Below, piece after piece: positions 1 through 30,486 of a stretch of 64,000 nucleotides of DNA (position 1 is the first letter of the stretch; each line of letters begins with the position of its first letter). The position numbers were made by a program, and so were the translations under genes. A model generated the notes under the pieces. It had not been told where the DNA came from. It saw nothing but the letters and a program-made list of their open reading frames with translations, and did no database searches. Origin of the DNA: a bacterium (GTDB lineage Bacteria > Zhuqueibacterota > Zhuqueibacteria > Oleimicrobiales > Geothermoviventaceae); the NCBI GenBank assembly GCA_028275345.1, contig JAPWUV010000009.1, positions 109,109-173,108 on the forward strand. The letters are read 5' to 3'.

Positions 1-1478
1 TTCCCCTCGCACACCGTAGGTCCCACCCATGCCATGCACACCGGCGTCATTCTCGGCAAAAATACCCACGGTACCATTGCTATTGAAACCGAAAACCCCG
101 CGCGCGCTGCTACCAAGCTCTCCATAGTTCCCGGTACCATTGTGCTTGCCGTGAACAGCCGTGCCAGTCGTGGCCTCGCCGTACACGCCGTACTGAGCGC
201 CGCCCATTGCACGGAGGTTTCCGGTGGGCTGGCGGCCATACACGCCATAATCCGCGGTGCCCAAGTGGCCGAGATTCCCGTTGTAATGACTACCCCCCAC
301 TCCGTAGCCGCTCCTGCTGAACCCATACACACCGAAAGCGTTGGTTCCGTTGTTCGCCACACCGTGCACCCCAATGCCGTTGGAAGATGCCGCCTCTTCC
401 GTATACGCCCTCTGTGGAGCTTGCAAGGTAGCCGTAGTTGGCATCGCCGAGGTAGCCGAAGTTCCCGCTTGTCGCGTGCTGACCGCGCACGCCCGCACCA
501 TAGGCCTGGCCCAACACACCGTACTGCGCAGTACCGAGGCGGCCGAAGTTGCCGCTGGTCTGGTGGTAGCCATTTACAGCGATGCCGAGCGTGCCGGTGC
601 CCACGGCATTGACGGCCACTCCCTGACCGTTATCGGTGATCACGAAGGCAGGCCAGTCTGAGTTGATTGAGCCTTGGTACGGCAGCTCGAAGCCGCCGGT
701 CTCGTCCGTACCCCAGGCAAGATTGCCGCCGGAGAGCTTGAACACCTGCCCGTCGCTGCCGCCGGTAGCCGAAAGCTTCGCGGCCATCACCGCGCCGTCG
801 GCAATATCGGCGGTGCCAATCGTCCCATCCGCAAACTTCGCCGAAGTCACCGCATTGTCGGCAAGTTTTGCGGTGCCGACAGCACCCGGCGCGATCGTGG
901 GATTCGGGTACATCCCTGCGAGATCGCCACCGGCGGCACCCCCCCGGAGGGAGACTCACACCGGGAGCGAGCTTCGCTTGCGTCACGGCCCCATCCGCAA
1001 TCTTGGCCGTCGTCACCGCATTGGCCGCGAGAGTCGGATTAGGATAGGTGCCGGTCAAATCCCCGCCCGCCGTGATGCCACCAATACTCTCGGTGCTGGC
1101 AGCGCGGAAGCTGTAGCCAGAGCTCGTCAGAGGGATCCGCGGACTAAGCTCCACGCCTCCTCCAACCGTGACCCCAAGCCAGTACGGCCTGTCAAACGGC
1201 AAAGCCAATGGAACCACGCTTCCCAGCATCACATTGAAGACGCCCTTGGCAACCGCGACCACTTGGCCTTCCTCCCAAAGGGGACTGCCGCCCGTTCTCA
1301 CGTCATAGAGCCGGAAGGTGAGACTGTAGTCTCCGTCCGGTACCGCTGAGCCACTGGCGTCCGTCAACACGCCCTGGTAGCCGATGGTCCGTGGGATCTG
1401 TGCCAGGCCCGGTTTCGCTTCAAGAGGCAGCATCAGTCCCGCGGATAACCACGCCCGCGAGAAACTCGCCCCGCGCAT
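1..1478 (-). CDS. Secreted repeat surface protein (tail-fibre/collagen-like repeats); 5' part of gene, 3' end lies beyond window start; reading frame interrupted at least twice
   Basis: ATG at 1478..1476 preceded by GGAGG; signal-peptide-like N-terminus (MRGASFSRAWLSAGLMLPLEA); tandem repeats (GTYPNPTLAANAVTTAKIADGAVTQAKLA; MYPNPTIAPGAVGTAKLADNAVTSAKFADG) continue across frame changes at about 939-945 and 383-395. Confidence 0.55.
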
Positions 1479-2098
1479 GATCCTACCTCCTCTCCCGTCC
1501 TCACGGGAGGAATCCATGAAAACCACCCGCCTCCCTTCCCCATTACCCTCCCACATCGATTGCTCCAATACGGCTTGCCTCCTTCCCCCTCCCTTCGTTG
1601 ACCTGCACGTTTCACTCCCCCAAGGCCGATCCCACCGTCCACGGGGCCCACGCGCATGCGGTTCAGCTTGTGCCAACCAAGGCCCCCGCCGTCCCCGCAA
1701 CATGGCCTGCCTCGTCCGGCGTACGGGGCAGGAATTGTCCCGCCTCATGCGAAGGAGGTTACGTAATGTTCAGCCGGCATCCCTCCTCCCCCCTGTCTCT
1801 CCAACGCAAGGTCTGCCGTCCGTCCGTAGACCCTCCCGACTCCCGAAAACAGCCTTGCACACCCTTCTCCCCGGCTTCTCCTGCAAACGCCACCCGCTGC
1901 TCTCCGCGAACCAAAGCCCGCTCCCGCAGCAGCCTCTTCTTGCTATCCCGCAGGGCCAATCCGCAGCCACGCCGCGCCTCCGTCTCCTCCTCCGTCCGGC
2001 CCGAGCTCATCCCCCGGCGTCTACCCCAACTAAACCGGCGAGCACGCACGAGAAAACCCGCTCCCGCAGTAGAGCCAAGGATAAGCACGATCAACCCG

Positions 2099-2437
2099 CT
2101 ATCGCACGTACGTCAGCTTCCGCATCCGGACGAACACCCGCCCGCTCTTCTCCGACTTCGCCTCCAGCCGGTAGAGATAGACTCCACTGGCTAGACCCTC
2201 TCCCCGCACCTGCACCTTGTGATACCCCGCAGGGAAAGTCCCCTTCACCAGCGTCGCCACCTCCTCCCCAAGAGCATTGTAGAGCTTGGGGCTCACCTCA
2301 GCCCCCTCCGGAAGCGCAAACTCGATGGTCGTGCTCGGGTTGAACGGGTTGGGATAATTCTGTTCCAGCCGATACCCCCAGACGCCGCTCACCGGCCGTC
2401 GTCGATGCCAGCAACGGTTCTTCCGTGCACGGACCAA
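2099..2437 (-). pseudogene. Orphan T9SS C-terminal sorting domain (CTD) with no cargo domain upstream; likely gene remnant
   Basis: LEQNYPNPFNPSTTIEFALPEG...SGVYLYRLEA motif typical of T9SS CTDs; sequence immediately upstream on the same strand has stops in all frames (e.g. TAATTAG). Confidence 0.45.
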
Positions 2438-4540
2438 AAGTTCACGTCCCGCCTGTTCGCGCCTGTGGCACCTTCACTGGAAAGGCTGCGCTTGCAGGGT
2501 AGATGCCCCGTCGGCCTGAAATCTCCGCGCAGTTCGCGTTCTCGCGCGTACGATTGTGCGGGAAAGCTAATTACTGGACACTATCGTAGCCGTGGTGCTG
2601 GATGCGGGGACCTCTGTGGGTACAATGGCGGGCTTGGGCGAAGAACTGGAGCTGAAGAGGATGTGGGCAGAACCGACACGCACACCCGCATGGCGAGCAG
2701 GAACTCTCGGCTCTCCTTGGAGCCTGTGCACGCTCCGTTTCATCCTTCGACCTCTCGTTTGGACACTCGAAACTCCATCGTATCGGCTCCATTGAAACTG
2801 ACCCGAGCGAGGGACATCCCCGACGCTAGCGTCAGAAGAACCCCTCCCTCATGTATCCGGGGGTCCAAACCGCTTACCGCGAGGCGATTACCTCCTCCCC
2901 CGCGCCATAGGAGCCGCCGTTTCCCCCACCGAATTTCCACAACCCCCGCCAACGACCGATTCGTGGGAACAGGGCGCGCCAGAATCTCGAACCCCGGGTC
3001 CTTTCGCTCCGGTCAAGGGTCGCCAACTCTAGCAAGAATGTCAAGAAGAGTTTTCAGAACCGTCGCCCTCGTCGTCTCTTTCTTCTTGCAGCCGGGAGGA
3101 CAAGGTTCGATGCGAGAAGCGTCGCCCGCGGCGCTTCCGGGGACTTGCCCTATTAGCCAGGAGCTTCGTTGCGACGAGCGGCGTGGCATCCTCGGCTTTG
3201 CTTCTTTGGAGGAGCGGGGGCGTGGGAGCCTCACCGCAAATGCAGCAAGCCACGCGTGTCCGCTTTGGTGTCCGAAGCCCTCTCTCGGAGCGTACCTAGT
3301 CCTGCCCGCCGCCGAACCGCAGCGTCGACCCCGCCGGCGAAAGTCTCGCTCGCTGCTTGCCAGACCATCCGCCGTACCTCAGCTCGCTTTGGGACCAATG
3401 GTCAGCGAAGCGTTCAAGACGGCGCATTGGGCAGGGGGGTCGACCTAATCCCACATCCCCCGACGTCGAGCCAGAGGGGGCTCACCTCGGGCACCGCTGC
3501 TTCCCTCGGGGACAGCATCCACCGCTCGGTCCGAAGGCAGCCCCAATGCGTCCGGGCGTGCCACCGGTACAGCCCGCGGGGAGAACCGTTACGAACTGCG
3601 GCCTTCCGCCGCCCCGATCCGACCCAACGGCCAGGAGCAGTGGCGAATCGAGCGTGGAAAAAGGCCCGGCGCGCCTACCGCCCCTCGGCTGTCCGGAAGG
3701 ACGGTGCCGTTTTCTACCCTATGTCAAGCAGAACAGCCTCTTGAAGCCCGAGACGCTGGCCGTCGCCAGGGCCATTTATCCTCAGCAGGGTCTGCCTCTC
3801 GCAAGTGGGGAGACCAACGAAATGCCGATCCCTCGTGCGCAATGCCCATCCAATCCCGCGAATTCCCGACCCGTGGAGGCCGGCTCTTCAGCGCGCGGAA
3901 ACGCGCCTCGCGCTTTCTTGCTGGGGAAGTCGACCCCGCCAGTGGCCGTCACAGAGAGGACCTTATCGGGGGTCCCCACGCGGCCAAGACCCTCGCGGTT
4001 CTCGCAATTATGCCCTTAGTATTCGAGTACAAGAGCAGTCTAACCAGTGACTGAGTATCGTACGGGTCCGCACCAATATCGGTGAGTATTATCGCCCGGC
4101 GCTTTTGACTTACCTGCCCATGAGCGGCTTGGGACAGGAGCTCATAGAGAAAAGTACCGTACCGATTACCAGCCGGCTATGCATCGCAGCCTCCGTCCAT
4201 CTTTTGCGCCACGGCTCACCCAGATTACCCATCTACTTCTCTTTCGCAAATATTAACCACATCGGGAACACAACATAGGTCAAGTGACTGATTTCCCCCA
4301 ATAGGACAATCGCACTTCCGACTTAATCGCTAAATCGCACTTTCTTGTGATTCCGACCATGACCCCGCCTATCCGTCCACTTAGGAACAGCTCTCACCGT
4401 GCCCGGTACGCAGATCACCCACCGTCCCCGAGAGTTTCGGCTCAGCCAAGACTCCCCATTGCCTTGAAGCGCAACACTCCCCCGCGGGATCACAACCCTA
4501 CTGAGGGGGATACTTACCCTCTTCCCGTCTTTCGGGCTCC

Positions 4541-6960
4541 TCACCGCAATAGCAGCAGCTTCAGGCTCTCCGCTCCCGAGATACTCACGAACCGGCACAG
4601 GTAGACCCCCGAGGGCAAGATTCGTCCGCTCCGGTCTCTACCATCCCACCGCAGGAAATATTCTCCTGCCTCGTACACTCCGTCAACGAGAGTCACGACC
4701 TCGGCCCCCGTAATCGCGAAGACTCTCGCCACCACCCGGCCCCGGCGCGAAAGGGAGAAGTGGATGGTCGTGACGGAATTGAAGGGATTGGGACTGCTCC
4801 GGAGAGCAAACCCGCGGACAGGAGCCGCAGGACCGGCGGGGAAGCTTGGTTCGTAGGACACACCGGTGATGACAGCCTTTGCAACCCAGTCCAGTCGCCC
4901 GTATCCGTTGTTGGAGTAGTCGACGGACCAGTTGCCTTGCTCGTCCATCGTGCTCAGATCGACCATGCCGTCGCCGTCGTAGTCCGCGGGAATGGGCACG
5001 CAATCCTTGCCCCCGTAGATGGGCTCGGAGACCCAGTCGATGCCGACCAATCCCCAGCCCATGACGGCGTCCGTCATCCAGCGGCCCTCCTCCGTCTTCA
5101 CGCCGATCGCTGCCGCTCGGTCTGACCCGTACCGCCCTGGGGCCGGAATAGCCCCCATTCCCCCGTAATTGAGATTCGAAGGAGAAACCCAGTCCCACTG
5201 ATCCGCCGCTTGGAAGCCGTCGCGCGCCCAATCGATGAGCCAGCGCCCGTCATCAACTTTGATGGCCACATCCGCCTTCCCGTCGCCGTCGTAGTCGGCC
5301 GGGGCGGGATAGATGTTCCCCTCCGGGTAGTAGGCCTGAAGCCCGTGGGCGTGGAGATTCCACCCCGAAAAAGCGTCAGCGGAAAAGTCGAAGGACCAGC
5401 CGCCGTAGTACCCGAAAATGGCCACATCCGCCTTCCCATCGCCATCGTAGTCAGCGGGGACGGCCTGGACTTGGTAGAACCAGGCGCTGCCCCCGTACGG
5501 GAGTTTGAGGTCCCAGCTGCCGAAGCCGTTGTGCGCGTAATCGATGCACCATTCCCCCGTGAGATCGTCTTTGATGGCGATGTCCGCCTTCCCGTCCCCG
5601 TCGTAGTCGGCGGGAGCGGGCTGCGAGGATTTGTCCACGGCCGGCAAGCTGTGGCTACTCACCTGGAGATCCCAGCTCCCGAAGCCGTTCCTTGCGAAGT
5701 CGAGGAGCCAGCGCCCGTCGTTGACCTTCATCGCCAGATCGGCTTTGCCATCGCCATCGTAGTCCGCGGGACAGGGAAGGCGAAACTCCCCACAGGCGGA
5801 GCACCCGCGAGGGCGTGATGCATGATCCACGACTGGTAGCCCAGCACCGATGGCCCGGAGGAGGTCGGGGAAGCGCGCACGCTATCGCCATCGGCGGTGA
5901 GCCAGTAGCCGTCGCCGACCGCGGCAGTGATCGTCACGCGGTCCCGATTGGAGAAGTAATAGGGATTGAAATCCCAATACTCGTTCTGCCACTCGGGCCG
6001 GGGTGTGAGGACGACGCGCCGCTTGTCGTCCTTCAGCGCCAGGTACTTGCCGGACCAGTGCACAATCTTCGCCATCGACGGAGTCACGAATTCCAATCGC
6101 CACAGGAAGTCCGTGTTCCCGGGCTGGAGGGGCAGGAGCACGACCTTCGCCTCGCAGCGACGAGGGTAGGAATGGGCACAGAGGTACAGGTTATTGCCCG
6201 GGCTCAGCGAGAAATCCCTTTCGTTGCTGATGTAGAACCACGCCTGATCGTAGCCCTCGATGGTCTGCTTGCGCATCTCTTCGTTGGCCGTCCAGACCAG
6301 GAGGTAGATCCTTTCGTACTCGGTCTGGTCGATCAAACCCTCGTGGTAGCACTTGAGGAATTTGCCCACGTAGCTTCCATCCCCATAGACCGAGTTCCAG
6401 TAGATGGGCACGTTCGGAAGCTCAGCCCAGACGAAACGGCCCAGGAGGATGGTGTTCGTGGCGATGGCATCTCGCAGTTGCGGCAGGATATCCTGCGGCC
6501 GGATGCCGTGGCGCTGCATCATCGTGGCCAGCAAGGGGATGAGCGTGTTGTAGGATTGGGCGCAGTAATACGCGATGCGCGGGCTCTTGTTTTCGATGAG
6601 GATCTCGAACTGGTTGGCGGCATTGATGGCGTCGCGGATCCAGGCTTCGGTCGTCTGCTGCGAGGGCGGGTTGTTGAGATAGATTCGGTACTGCTCAATG
6701 AGCGCCTCCACGTCGGCTATTTGCTCTTCGGCGCGAACGATGTTGATCTCATCGAGGATCTCCTGTTTTGCCTGCTCAATGAGGTCGGCCAGATTGGGAT
6801 CCGGCTCCAGGAAGTTCTTGATGCGGTTGTAGGTATCCCACGCGGTCTTGATGAAGCTCAGGAAGTCGAACTCGCGGGACGGACTGGCATAGGAGACGGT
6901 TCCGAGGCCGGCAAGCCCCCAGAAGAGGACCCCAAGAAGGATGACTCGCTGCGATCTCAT
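4541..6960 (-). CDS. T9SS-sorted FG-GAP/VCBS-repeat protein with signal peptide and uncharacterised N-terminal domain; one apparent 1-bp frameshift near 5764-5770 joins ORFs 5728..6960 and 4541..5830
   Basis: ATG 6960 with GAGGAGG RBS; signal peptide MRSQRVILLGVLFWGLAGLGTVSYA; five PADYDGDGKAD repeats; C-terminal CTD (SPNPFNSVTTIHFSL...SGVYLCRF); the C-terminal ORF has no signal peptide of its own. Confidence 0.6.
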
Positions 6961-11789: not shown

Positions 11790-13399
11790 CTCTCGCCGGG
11801 ACTGCCATCGTCGGCACCCTCACGGCGGGCCTCCTTGCGACGCTTCTTGCAGCCAATCGACGGCTACGCCAGGAACGGGACTTCGGCGAGACCATCCTCC
11901 GCGAGGCTCCCGCAGCGATCATCGTCCTCGATGCTTGGGGGCAAATCCTCCGGGTGAATGATCAGCTGAGCCGACTGCTCGGGTGCGATCCCCGGGCGCT
12001 GCGGGGCCGGTCCTTCCGCACCATCCCTCGCCTGAATGAGCTCCTGGCCAACTCTTGGGGAGAAGGTCCGTACAGCGGTCCGAGGAATTGCGAGTTCGAG
12101 CGCCAGATCCCGGACAGCGAAGGGAACCCTCACCATCTCAGCTGGACCCTCACGGCCCTCTCCGGCCCGAAGGGCTTGCCCCGATGGCTTGTGGCCATCG
12201 GCATCGATCTGACGGAGACCAAACGGCTGGAACGCTACCTATTCGAGGCACAAAAGCTGGAGGCCGTGGGGAGGTTGGCGGGCGGGATCGCTCACGATTT
12301 CAATAATCTGCTCACGGCGATCCTCGGCCAATGCTACGCGTTGGAAAGGCATCTACCAGACCCCGATCATCCCGCGCGGGCCGCGATCCAGGAGATCGAC
12401 CGTGCCGCTGAGAAGGCCTCTCGGCTCACGAAGCAACTTCTGGCTTTCAGCCGCCAGCAAGTGCTGGAGCCTAGGCCGGTGCTCCTCAACGGGATCGTCT
12501 CCGAGATGGAAGAAATGATCCGACGCCTCGCTGGGGAGTCCGTGGATGTGAGCTTGGAGCTGCATCCCGAGGCGGGGTTGATCGAGGCGGATCCGACGCA
12601 GATCGAGCGGGTCCTGATCAACCTTGTCCTCAATGCCCGTGATGCCATGCCACAGGGCGGTAGGCTACGTCTGGTCACCCTCCGTTGCAGCGCCGATGAA
12701 GCCGCCTGTCGGCGTGTTCCAGGGCTCCGTCCGGGCAAGTATGCCGTCCTCGTGGTGGAGGACACCGGAATCGGCATGGACGAGGCGACGCTCTCTCGGA
12801 TTTTCGAGCCCTTCTTCACCACGAAGCCGGCGGGCAAAGGGACGGGCCTGGGGCTTTCCACCGTATACGGGATCGTGCAGCAGCTTGGGGGGGTCATCTC
12901 GGTGACGAGTCAACCCGGCGAGGGAACCCGCTTCGAGATCTATTTCCCCCAGCTGGACACCGCGACCCCGGTTCCCGTCCCGAGCGGCGAAGAAGACGTA
13001 CCTCGGCCGCTGCGGGGCCTGGTGCTAGTCGCGGAAGACGACCCCGACGTTCGGAACTCCGCCGCCGAGGCCCTTCGGGACGCGGGTTTTACCGTGGAAG
13101 TGGCTGCCGACGGCCCGGAGGCGCTGCGGAAGAGCGCCCTACTCGGCCACAAGATCGATCTCCTCATCACCGACGTGGTCATGCCGCGCATGAGCGGCCG
13201 AGAGCTGGCAGAACGGCTCCGAACCTTCAACCCAAAGCTCAAAGTCCTGTACATCTCAGGCTATGCCGAGGAAGTGATCCGTCAACACGGCGTGTTGGGA
13301 AAGAGCTCTCAGCTCCTCTCAAAGCCCTTTACCCCGAGGCAATTGGTGCGCACCGTGGCCAGGGTGATTCGGGAACCCGTCCCGACAGGATCGCAATAG
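11756..13399 (+). CDS. Hybrid sensor histidine kinase (TM, PAS, HisKA, HATPase_c, C-terminal receiver)
   Basis: GTG start after GGGAGGA; H-box HDFNNLLTAILG; G-box GTGLGLS; receiver LVLVAEDDPDVR...LITDVVMPRMSG. Confidence 0.85.
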   Translation: MPSPEWGYWWVALAGTAIVGTLTAGLLATLLAANRRLRQERDFGETILREAPAAIIVLDAWGQILRVNDQLSRLLGCDPRALRGRSFRTIPRLNELLANSWGEGPYSGPRNCEFERQIPDSEGNPHHLSWTLTALSGPKGLPRWLVAIGIDLTETKRLERYLFEAQKLEAVGRLAGGIAHDFNNLLTAILGQCYALERHLPDPDHPARAAIQEIDRAAEKASRLTKQLLAFSRQQVLEPRPVLLNGIVSEMEEMIRRLAGESVDVSLELHPEAGLIEADPTQIERVLINLVLNARDAMPQGGRLRLVTLRCSADEAACRRVPGLRPGKYAVLVVEDTGIGMDEATLSRIFEPFFTTKPAGKGTGLGLSTVYGIVQQLGGVISVTSQPGEGTRFEIYFPQLDTATPVPVPSGEEDVPRPLRGLVLVAEDDPDVRNSAAEALRDAGFTVEVAADGPEALRKSALLGHKIDLLITDVVMPRMSGRELAERLRTFNPKLKVLYISGYAEEVIRQHGVLGKSSQLLSKPFTPRQLVRTVARVIREPVPTGSQ

Positions 13400-29205: not shown

Positions 29206-30486
29206 ATGGCCAAGTTCAAGGCAATTCGGGGCACACGGGACGTTCTTCCAGAGGAATGGCCCTACTGGGATCACATCGAGCGAGCCATCCGGAAGGTGAC
29301 CGCCTTGTACGGCTACCGCAAGATCGCCACTCCCATCCTGGAAGAGACGGGCCTGTACGTCCGCGGCGTGGGCCAAGGGACGGACATTGTGGACAAGGAG
29401 ATGTACACCTTTGAGGATCGTGGCGGGCGCTCTTTGAGCTTGCGGCCGGAGTTCACCGCGGGCATCATGCGGGCTTACCTGGAGAACGGACTTCACGTCC
29501 AGCCTAAGCCGGTCAAACTGTACTCCGTGGGTCCGATCTTCCGCTACGAGCGTCCCGAGGCGGGCCGTTACCGGCAGCACACCCAGTTCAATGTGGAGGC
29601 CATTGGCGAGCAGGACCCCGCCTTGGACTTTGAGGTGATTGCGCTTGCGCTCCACCTCTTTCGGGAAATCGGCCTCACCGGGACCCGGCTGCAAATCAAC
29701 AGCACCGGTTGCCCCCGCTGCCGGCCGCAGTACGTGAGCCAGCTAACCGAGTACTATTCCACCAGGTTGGATGTGGTGTGCAGCGATTGCCGTCGGCGCT
29801 TCGAGCGCAATCCGCTCCGGCTCCTCGACTGCAAGGTGCCCCAATGTCAGCCGGTGATCGCCGAGGCCCCGAACATCCGCGCCCACCTCTGCTCCGAGTG
29901 CCGGCAGCATTTCGAGACCCTGCTCAGCTACCTCGACGCCGCCTCCGTGCCGTACGAAGTCAACCCCCGTCTGGTGCGGGGTCTCGACTACTACACTAAG
30001 ACCGTCTTCGAGGTGTGGGTGCAGGGCATTGGTTCCCAGAACGCCATCTGTGGGGGCGGCCGGTACGATGGCCTCATCGAGGAGCTGGGAGGCCCCCCCA
30101 CGCCCGGGATCGGTTTCGGTTCCGGGATTGAGCGCCTGGTCCTCACCCTGCAGGAGCAGAACGTCCCCGTGGCCAGTCCGTCGGCCCCGGCCGTGTTCCT
30201 GGCCCACCTCGGCGAAGAGGCCAAGCGCGTCGCCCTGGAGATGGTCCAGGCCTTCCGCGCCGAGGGCATCCCCGCGCTCGTCAGCTTCGGGGAGCGAAGC
30301 CTCAAGGCTCAGCTCCGGGATGCCAATCGGGTAGGGGCAAGAGTCGTGGTGGTGATCGGGGAGGAGGAGCTGCGGGACGGGCGCTTCCAGCTCAAATGGC
30401 TCGATCGAGGAGAGCAAACGAGCGTCCCCCGCGAACAGGTCATCCTCTCCGTGAAGCAGGAGCTCCGAGGGGTCGCCCTGGACTGA
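29206..30486 (+). CDS. hisS: Histidine--tRNA ligase
   Basis: MAKFKAIRGTRDVLPEE N-terminus and class II synthetase motifs. Confidence 0.95.
   Translation: MAKFKAIRGTRDVLPEEWPYWDHIERAIRKVTALYGYRKIATPILEETGLYVRGVGQGTDIVDKEMYTFEDRGGRSLSLRPEFTAGIMRAYLENGLHVQPKPVKLYSVGPIFRYERPEAGRYRQHTQFNVEAIGEQDPALDFEVIALALHLFREIGLTGTRLQINSTGCPRCRPQYVSQLTEYYSTRLDVVCSDCRRRFERNPLRLLDCKVPQCQPVIAEAPNIRAHLCSECRQHFETLLSYLDAASVPYEVNPRLVRGLDYYTKTVFEVWVQGIGSQNAICGGGRYDGLIEELGGPPTPGIGFGSGIERLVLTLQEQNVPVASPSAPAVFLAHLGEEAKRVALEMVQAFRAEGIPALVSFGERSLKAQLRDANRVGARVVVVIGEEELRDGRFQLKWLDRGEQTSVPREQVILSVKQELRGVALD

Follow-up and report, generated by a model that had tools for sequence, protein, structure and literature searches.

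The run of seven C at positions 939–945 of the window (the whole 64,000-nucleotide stretch of DNA analysed here) lies in what is most probably a decaying pseudogene of a secreted, fibre-like protein with DUF5907 repeats. We put at roughly 80% the probability that this gene has already been inactivated and that its tract drifts, with a length that gates no full-length product. The gene is read from the minus strand, where the run appears as G7, that is, the in-frame G6 state plus one base, and it is the sole run of seven or more bases within the gene. An earlier note on this DNA had reported a frameshift at this run in a repeat-protein gene, and both translation and a GC3 frame plot confirm it; the note overlooked that the run (hereafter FS1) is one of three frameshifts in the gene. 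The host, judged by sequence, is most likely an uncultured hot-spring thermophile of the KSB1 lineage; the nearest named relatives of its LysRS belong to candidate division KSB1 (91% identity), with other KSB1 members and Calditrichota next at ~70%.

Within the window, the gene consists of three minus-strand segments. Segment 1 (positions 946–1478) begins at the ATG at 1478–1476 and carries a signal-peptide-like leader, a conserved N-terminal domain and the first DUF5907 repeat (~178 codons), aligning with intact homologues from residue 1 onwards. Segment 2 (399–938), shifted by +1, contains more DUF5907 repeats and the start of Gly-rich GxYG repeats, ending in ...GYLASSTEGVYG, and segment 3 (1–396), shifted by another +1, comprises Gly-rich repeats. 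The gene runs ~0.7 kb past the left edge of the window, to a stop codon at about position -717 that was located in an identical copy, L001 (ENA ERZ27247212, contig k141_157206). This contig, reached through an exact match to a protein encoded nearby, agrees with the window at every base of positions 1–6960 and reaches 4.3 kb past the window's left end, window position x corresponding to L001 position 16961 - x.

Removal of one base at each of the three frameshift sites yields a repaired protein of 730 amino acids, which is collinear over 100% with the intact 727-residue homologue P0001 (53% identity) and whose residues 1–181 match window positions 1478–936 in a tblastn search. The description of the gene in the earlier note as encoding a repeat surface protein is supported by a Pfam DUF5907 repeat at residues 126–162 of the repaired protein (36.4 bits, cut-off 27) and by the signal-peptide-like N-terminus, whose leader MRGASFSRAWLSAGLMLPLEAKPGLAQ aligns with the leaders of the homologues. 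PHROG tail-fibre families also match the repeat region, and a match to the NCBIfam N-domain of Bdellovibrio MAT fibres lies far under the cut-off (18.5 vs 60 bits). The layout of the family consists of the leader, the N-domain, DUF5907 repeats, Gly-rich repeats and a conserved C-terminal IDHPLDP...YFEALN domain. The last of these occupies residues ~555–690 of the repaired protein (KSFxIDHPLDPxNKY...LPxYFEALNxDFRYQLT...) and occurs at more than 586 loci from Bacteroidota, Ignavibacteriota, Acidobacteriota, Chloroflexota, Planctomycetota and others (L012–L091 being GTDB genomes); it matches no Pfam model and has no relative by sequence in the PDB. A PDB sequence search with the fibre protein likewise returned no relative, and no paralogue of the gene was found elsewhere in the window.

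The minus-strand ORF that starts at the ATG reads ...AVTQAKLAPGVSLPPGG as far as the tract, ~178 codons from its start; beyond this point the next frame carries on as AAGGDLAGMYPNPTIAPGAVGT..., and the GC3 frame plot changes phase at ~940. When one base is taken from G7, the translation becomes ...KLAPGVSLPPGGAAGGDLAGMYPNPT..., a motif present in intact homologues. The in-frame state is CCG GGG GGT (G6), which codes for the Pro-Gly-Gly of the SLPPGGAAGGDL motif. This repaired junction is identical in the intact homologues P0001 and P0004, and also in P0006, from the 98.9%-identical relative L002 that has G6 there, which bears out the earlier proposal that one G fewer would restore the next repeat. 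G/C 7-mers number 3 in the window, against 37 ± 7.5 expected from dinucleotide-preserving shuffles (~12-fold depletion); such runs are therefore strongly depleted, and the C7 does not stand for any excess over chance. In a genome of 64% GC, the run follows simply from the GC-rich third positions of these codons.

On sequence comparison, the G tract is no conserved feature or device of the family, because the nearest intact homologues (53% identity) code for the same Pro-Pro-Gly-Gly motif as CCT CC(C/G) GGT GGT, without a G run. These homologues are P0001, on contig L092, and P0003, on L093 and L094, the latter of which co-occurs in Obsidian Pool samples. Among the 80 loci listed from GTDB genomes, a thin and mostly low-GC sample in which the genome of the window itself does not figure, the GGDL-x-G-x-YPNP motif was found in 10 instances, in which the longest G run was 5.

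Three-frame translation of L001 places all three +1 frameshifts inside 2.2 kb. FS2 (net +1), at window positions 397–398 of the minus strand, has the sequence GGA-A-GAG and involves no homopolymer run; removal of one A gives GVYGEAASSNGIGVHGVANNG, matching the homologues. FS3 (net +1; GAA-G-CTG) lies on the same strand at window position -328 (L001 17289), 328 bases past the left end of the window and before the conserved C-terminal domain. Deleting a single base mends each frameshift and yields sequence that is conserved among the intact homologues, and the repaired junctions fall in the conserved blocks SLPPGGAAGGDL, GVYGEAxSxNGxGVxGVAxNG and LDANGEAWVELPxYFEALN. No premature in-frame stops were seen in the repaired frames, which marks the decay as recent.

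The distribution of these lesions was followed over ten further loci (L002–L010 and L101) with 98.6–99.2% DNA identity to the copy in the window, which were collected by protein-cluster and exact-protein contig look-ups from several datasets and assemblers (JGI, ENA, Logan). In the multiple alignment, FS2 is present in 11/11 related loci, with no indel difference at the site. FS3 is found in nine of the eleven; L009 and L010 lack it, and their products, P0130 and P0128, read through the site. A 5-bp segment at window positions 443–447 (GCGAT in sense orientation) is kept in the window, L009 and L010 and deleted in the eight loci L002–L008 and L101, where the deletion constitutes an additional frameshift; the distributions of FS3 and of the 5-bp deletion are nested. 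None of the 11 loci carries an intact allele, and no read-through member was found in the five clusters of a 15-billion-protein collection that hold fragments of the gene.

The tract itself differs in length among these closely related populations, in a comparison between assemblies that each contribute one consensus length. G6 was found in L002 (JGI 3300009503); G7 in L001, L008 (3300045900), L010 (3300043569) and L101 (SRR25522558); and G8 in L003–L007 and L011 (3300005573, 3300027863, SRR6049666, SRR7539543, ERZ27247228). An exact-flank DNA pattern scan of metagenome contigs, allowing tract lengths of 5–10, returned one locus, on the already known 2-Mb Obsidian Pool contig. The G6 allele (L002; P0006, P0125) enters out-of-frame sequence after the 5-bp deletion. 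The traceable source datasets are Yellowstone hot-spring metagenomes, Ga0078972 being described as a 'Yellowstone metagenome' (PMC8986864) and SRR6049666 as Obsidian Pool (PMC10762115). L008 and L101 carry L001 alleles upstream of L001 position 15542 and L002-like alleles downstream of 16221 (L001 15338–16221; window 1623–740), a haplotype that, from its sequence, may reflect recombination between co-existing strains or a chimeric consensus.

That the extra base is a homopolymer miscall on a true G6 state, as the earlier note had considered for a long-read assembly, is very unlikely. Homopolymers are the classic sites of indel errors, but G7 occurs in four distinct haplotypes with SNPs of their own (L001, L008, L010 and L101), its product is on record from NCBI, ENA and Logan, and G8 occurs in at least five assemblies. 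The identical copy L001 has a MEGAHIT-style contig name (k141_...), which, going by the name, points to a short-read assembly. FS2 and FS3 lie outside homopolymer runs and are common to several assemblies. Moreover, both other 7-mers of the window have the same length in every relative checked: the G7 at 12887–12893 lies in an intact PAS/HisKA kinase (all 8 of 8 kinase variants have 547 amino acids), and the C7 at 30093–30099 in an intact HisRS that is found identically on 15 contigs. Long housekeeping genes are likewise intact, with Pfam profiles covered end to end in the glutamate synthase (GltB, 1513 amino acids), a ClpC-like ATPase, LysRS, an SdhA-like flavoprotein and others. Thus, the frameshifts are concentrated at the fibre locus and do not represent a general trait of the assembly.

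Substitutions in the fibre gene look neutral, as under relaxed selection. Its haplotypes differ by 43 SNPs (19.6 per kb), 32 of them nonsynonymous and 11 synonymous in the repaired frames, which corresponds to a pN/pS of 0.94 with no departure from the neutral expectation (binomial p = 0.86), on small counts. The two intact genes downstream show 10 nonsynonymous and 9 synonymous SNPs, at 10.6 SNPs per kb and a pN/pS of 0.39, and the histidine kinase shows 5 and 7, respectively. When the two neighbours and the kinase are pooled, the intact genes (15:16) differ from the pseudogene (32:11) with a Fisher p of 0.029, again on small counts; a comparison with the two immediate neighbours alone falls short of significance (p = 0.14). 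Both HisRS and LysRS show 100% protein identity between these lineages.

From these observations we infer a loss of function in which FS2 would have come first, inactivating the gene before the sampled haplotypes diverged, because it is common to every sampled population. Lineage-specific lesions would have followed later, namely the additional A near the C-terminal domain (FS3), the 5-bp deletion and the changes in tract length. The G7 of the window would then represent a real one-base expansion of the replication-slippage type, and the homopolymer, in a frame no longer under selection, would have drifted to G6, G7 and G8 in different populations. G7 occurs in haplotypes from either side of the deepest split (L010; L001; L008/L101), so parsimony favours it as the ancestral state among the sampled haplotypes; the G6 of L002 may be a secondary -1 slip, and a +1 slip may account for the G8 of the Obsidian Pool lineage. 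The tract would have changed length at least twice, as against about nine indel events at other sites in the 9.2 kb under comparison, and the pattern of lengths fits replication slippage at an unconstrained homopolymer.

A gene that is being lost rather than lost species-wide, dead in the sampled consensus genomes with an intact allele kept at low frequency or in unsampled springs, appears improbable. An intact allele could exist in unsampled populations, and several features would suit this view: the lesions are mosaic, with no FS3 in L009 and L010, no 5-bp deletion in L001, L009 and L010 and G6 in L002; the L008/L101 haplotype looks recombinant; and the repaired frames are free of premature stops. 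Against it stand the presence of FS2 in every one of the 11 loci and the lack of any read-through protein in the 15-billion-protein collection.

The reading frames of the two alleles were also compared as wholes (L001 15483–17678). In the allele of the window, the three +1 shifts sum to +3, and in L002 the shifts (0, -5, +1, +1) sum to -3, so that either allele has its N- and C-terminal parts in a common frame. Since the middle segments are still out of frame, this is probably a coincidence, with a 1 in 3 chance per allele. Rescue by compensating frameshifts, either the 5-bp deletion with FS2 or a sum of 0 mod 3, was considered and rejected, as the intervening segments are out of frame and a stop lies at position 630.

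In some endosymbionts, genes with homopolymer frameshifts are known to be rescued by transcriptional slippage, a precedent for the idea that the frameshifts of the fibre gene are bypassed by such slippage, or by programmed ribosomal frameshifting, and that the full-length protein is still made. The uniform direction of the three shifts (+1), their sum in multiples of three and the common frame of the two ends of the protein would agree with this. The three sites, however, share no slippery motif, one alone being a homopolymer; the lesions differ between lineages; the substitutions look neutral; and the N-terminal frame, read straight through, meets the stop at window position 630. We regard recoding as the least likely of the explanations considered.

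The earlier note had also taken the tract for a substrate of phase variation, and here the answer is divided: the site is indeed prone to slippage, with G6, G7 and G8 in near-identical populations, although a functional switch is contradicted by the presence of FS2 in 11/11 loci and by the absence of an intact allele. A contingency locus, with the fibre switched ON at G6 and OFF at G7 or G8 within a population through slipped-strand mispairing, would account for at least two length changes at one 7-bp site among haplotypes that are ~1% diverged. The product is secreted and fibre-like, as is usual for phase-variable genes, G/C 7-mers are otherwise avoided in this genome, and the in-frame G6 of L002 is also what a reversible switch would be expected to produce. 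Such a switch nevertheless needs an otherwise intact ORF, and fails here because FS2 breaks the gene in all 11 loci. Even the G6 ORF is still broken, L002 having the 5-bp deletion, FS2 and FS3 and its product P0006 running out of frame; a full-length allele is absent from the protein clusters; the nearest intact homologues lack the tract, and the 10 motif instances elsewhere have no G run longer than 5; and pN/pS is close to 1. We therefore consider phase variation highly improbable. Slightly less probable still is the specific proposition that the tract is, or was until recently, a genuine surface-fibre switch in an uncultured thermophilic bacterium of the KSB1 lineage, with intact alleles persisting outside the consensus assemblies and G6, G7 and G8 as ongoing ON/OFF states; were it true, the fibre switch would exemplify homopolymer phase variation in a candidate phylum from which, to our knowledge, no case has been documented.

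Of the outcomes that the earlier note had envisaged, a fixed pseudogene describes the locus best, with the reservation that different populations have tracts of different lengths. With a decaying pseudogene as the preferred reading, the tract should be listed neither as a candidate contingency locus nor as an assembly error, and the ORFs at 630–1748, 290–913 and 1–396 should be merged and flagged as one pseudogene instead of being annotated as three hypothetical proteins. The locus provides a small natural example of homopolymer drift between G6, G7 and G8 after selection on the frame was lost, in a genome in which such runs are otherwise strongly depleted, and the fibre-gene tract opens no new question.

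The fibre locus as a whole is a patch of damaged surface-protein genes. An adjacent protein of 806 amino acids, with FG-GAP repeats and a T9SS tail, is split in the window (5728–5881) into ORFs of 410 and 396/429 amino acids by a 1-bp deletion (GGG at 5774–5776, compared with GGGG in the Obsidian Pool relative). The relatives P0146 and P0149 have the gene intact, and its state in the window is a second, lineage-specific pseudogenization of a surface protein. The minus-strand ORF at 2099–2437 contains nothing but a Por_Secre_tail (T9SS sorting) domain and is 74% identical to residues 87–177, the C-terminal half, of a 177-residue protein located beside the intact fibre genes of L093 and L094; all six of its six SNPs among relatives are nonsynonymous. 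Between 2437 and 4540 no convincing ORF was recognized, and three single-base indels separate this stretch from the Obsidian Pool contig. The region 2099–4540 probably represents further decayed gene remnants.

Elsewhere in the window, a type I restriction-modification region occupies 40879–47806 on the minus strand, with HsdM (N6_Mtase and HsdM_N domains) at 45830–47806 and a low-GC ORF at 44460–45833 (58% GC over 44001–46000). The fragment at 40879–41265 matches positions 92–205 of 329 alone in T1RH-like_C, and that at 41243–41608 matches positions 114–194 of 207 alone in a YgjP-like peptidase; both look like truncated genes. The overlapping same-strand ORF pairs 30487/31124, 40879/41243 and 47689/48759 were examined as candidates for more frameshifts and discarded, because they belong to separate genes or represent fragments from different families.

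Regarding known systems, the domain layout of the repaired protein is that of DUF5907-repeat, phage-tail-fibre-like proteins and is common to hundreds of intact genes from many phyla; these proteins are intact in the homologues, whereas the copy in the window is frameshifted. The likeness to the mosaic adhesive trimer (MAT) fibres of Bdellovibrio is weak, with a sub-threshold match of the N-domain and no solved structure related by sequence. Phase-variable surface genes with poly-G or poly-C tracts are known from Neisseria, Haemophilus and Campylobacter. The fibre gene resembles these contingency genes in having a G run within the first third of an ORF that codes for a secreted surface fibre, in a tract that changes by one base up or down between close populations, and in a G6 state that keeps the local frame. 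It differs from them in that every allele has breaks at other places in the ORF, so that no tract length gives a full-length protein, and in that the tract is short (6–8), is not conserved in the nearest intact homologues and lies among neutral substitutions. Decaying bacterial pseudogenes, for their part, gather small indels, preferentially at homopolymers. The fibre gene shares with them multiple independent frameshifts, one in all lineages and others lineage-specific, a pN/pS of about 1, a SNP density of 19.6 per kb against 10.6 in its neighbours, and damage to adjacent surface-protein genes. Nothing essential sets it apart from such pseudogenes; the finding is an ordinary one, in which the observation of three tract-length states in natural hot-spring populations is slightly unusual.
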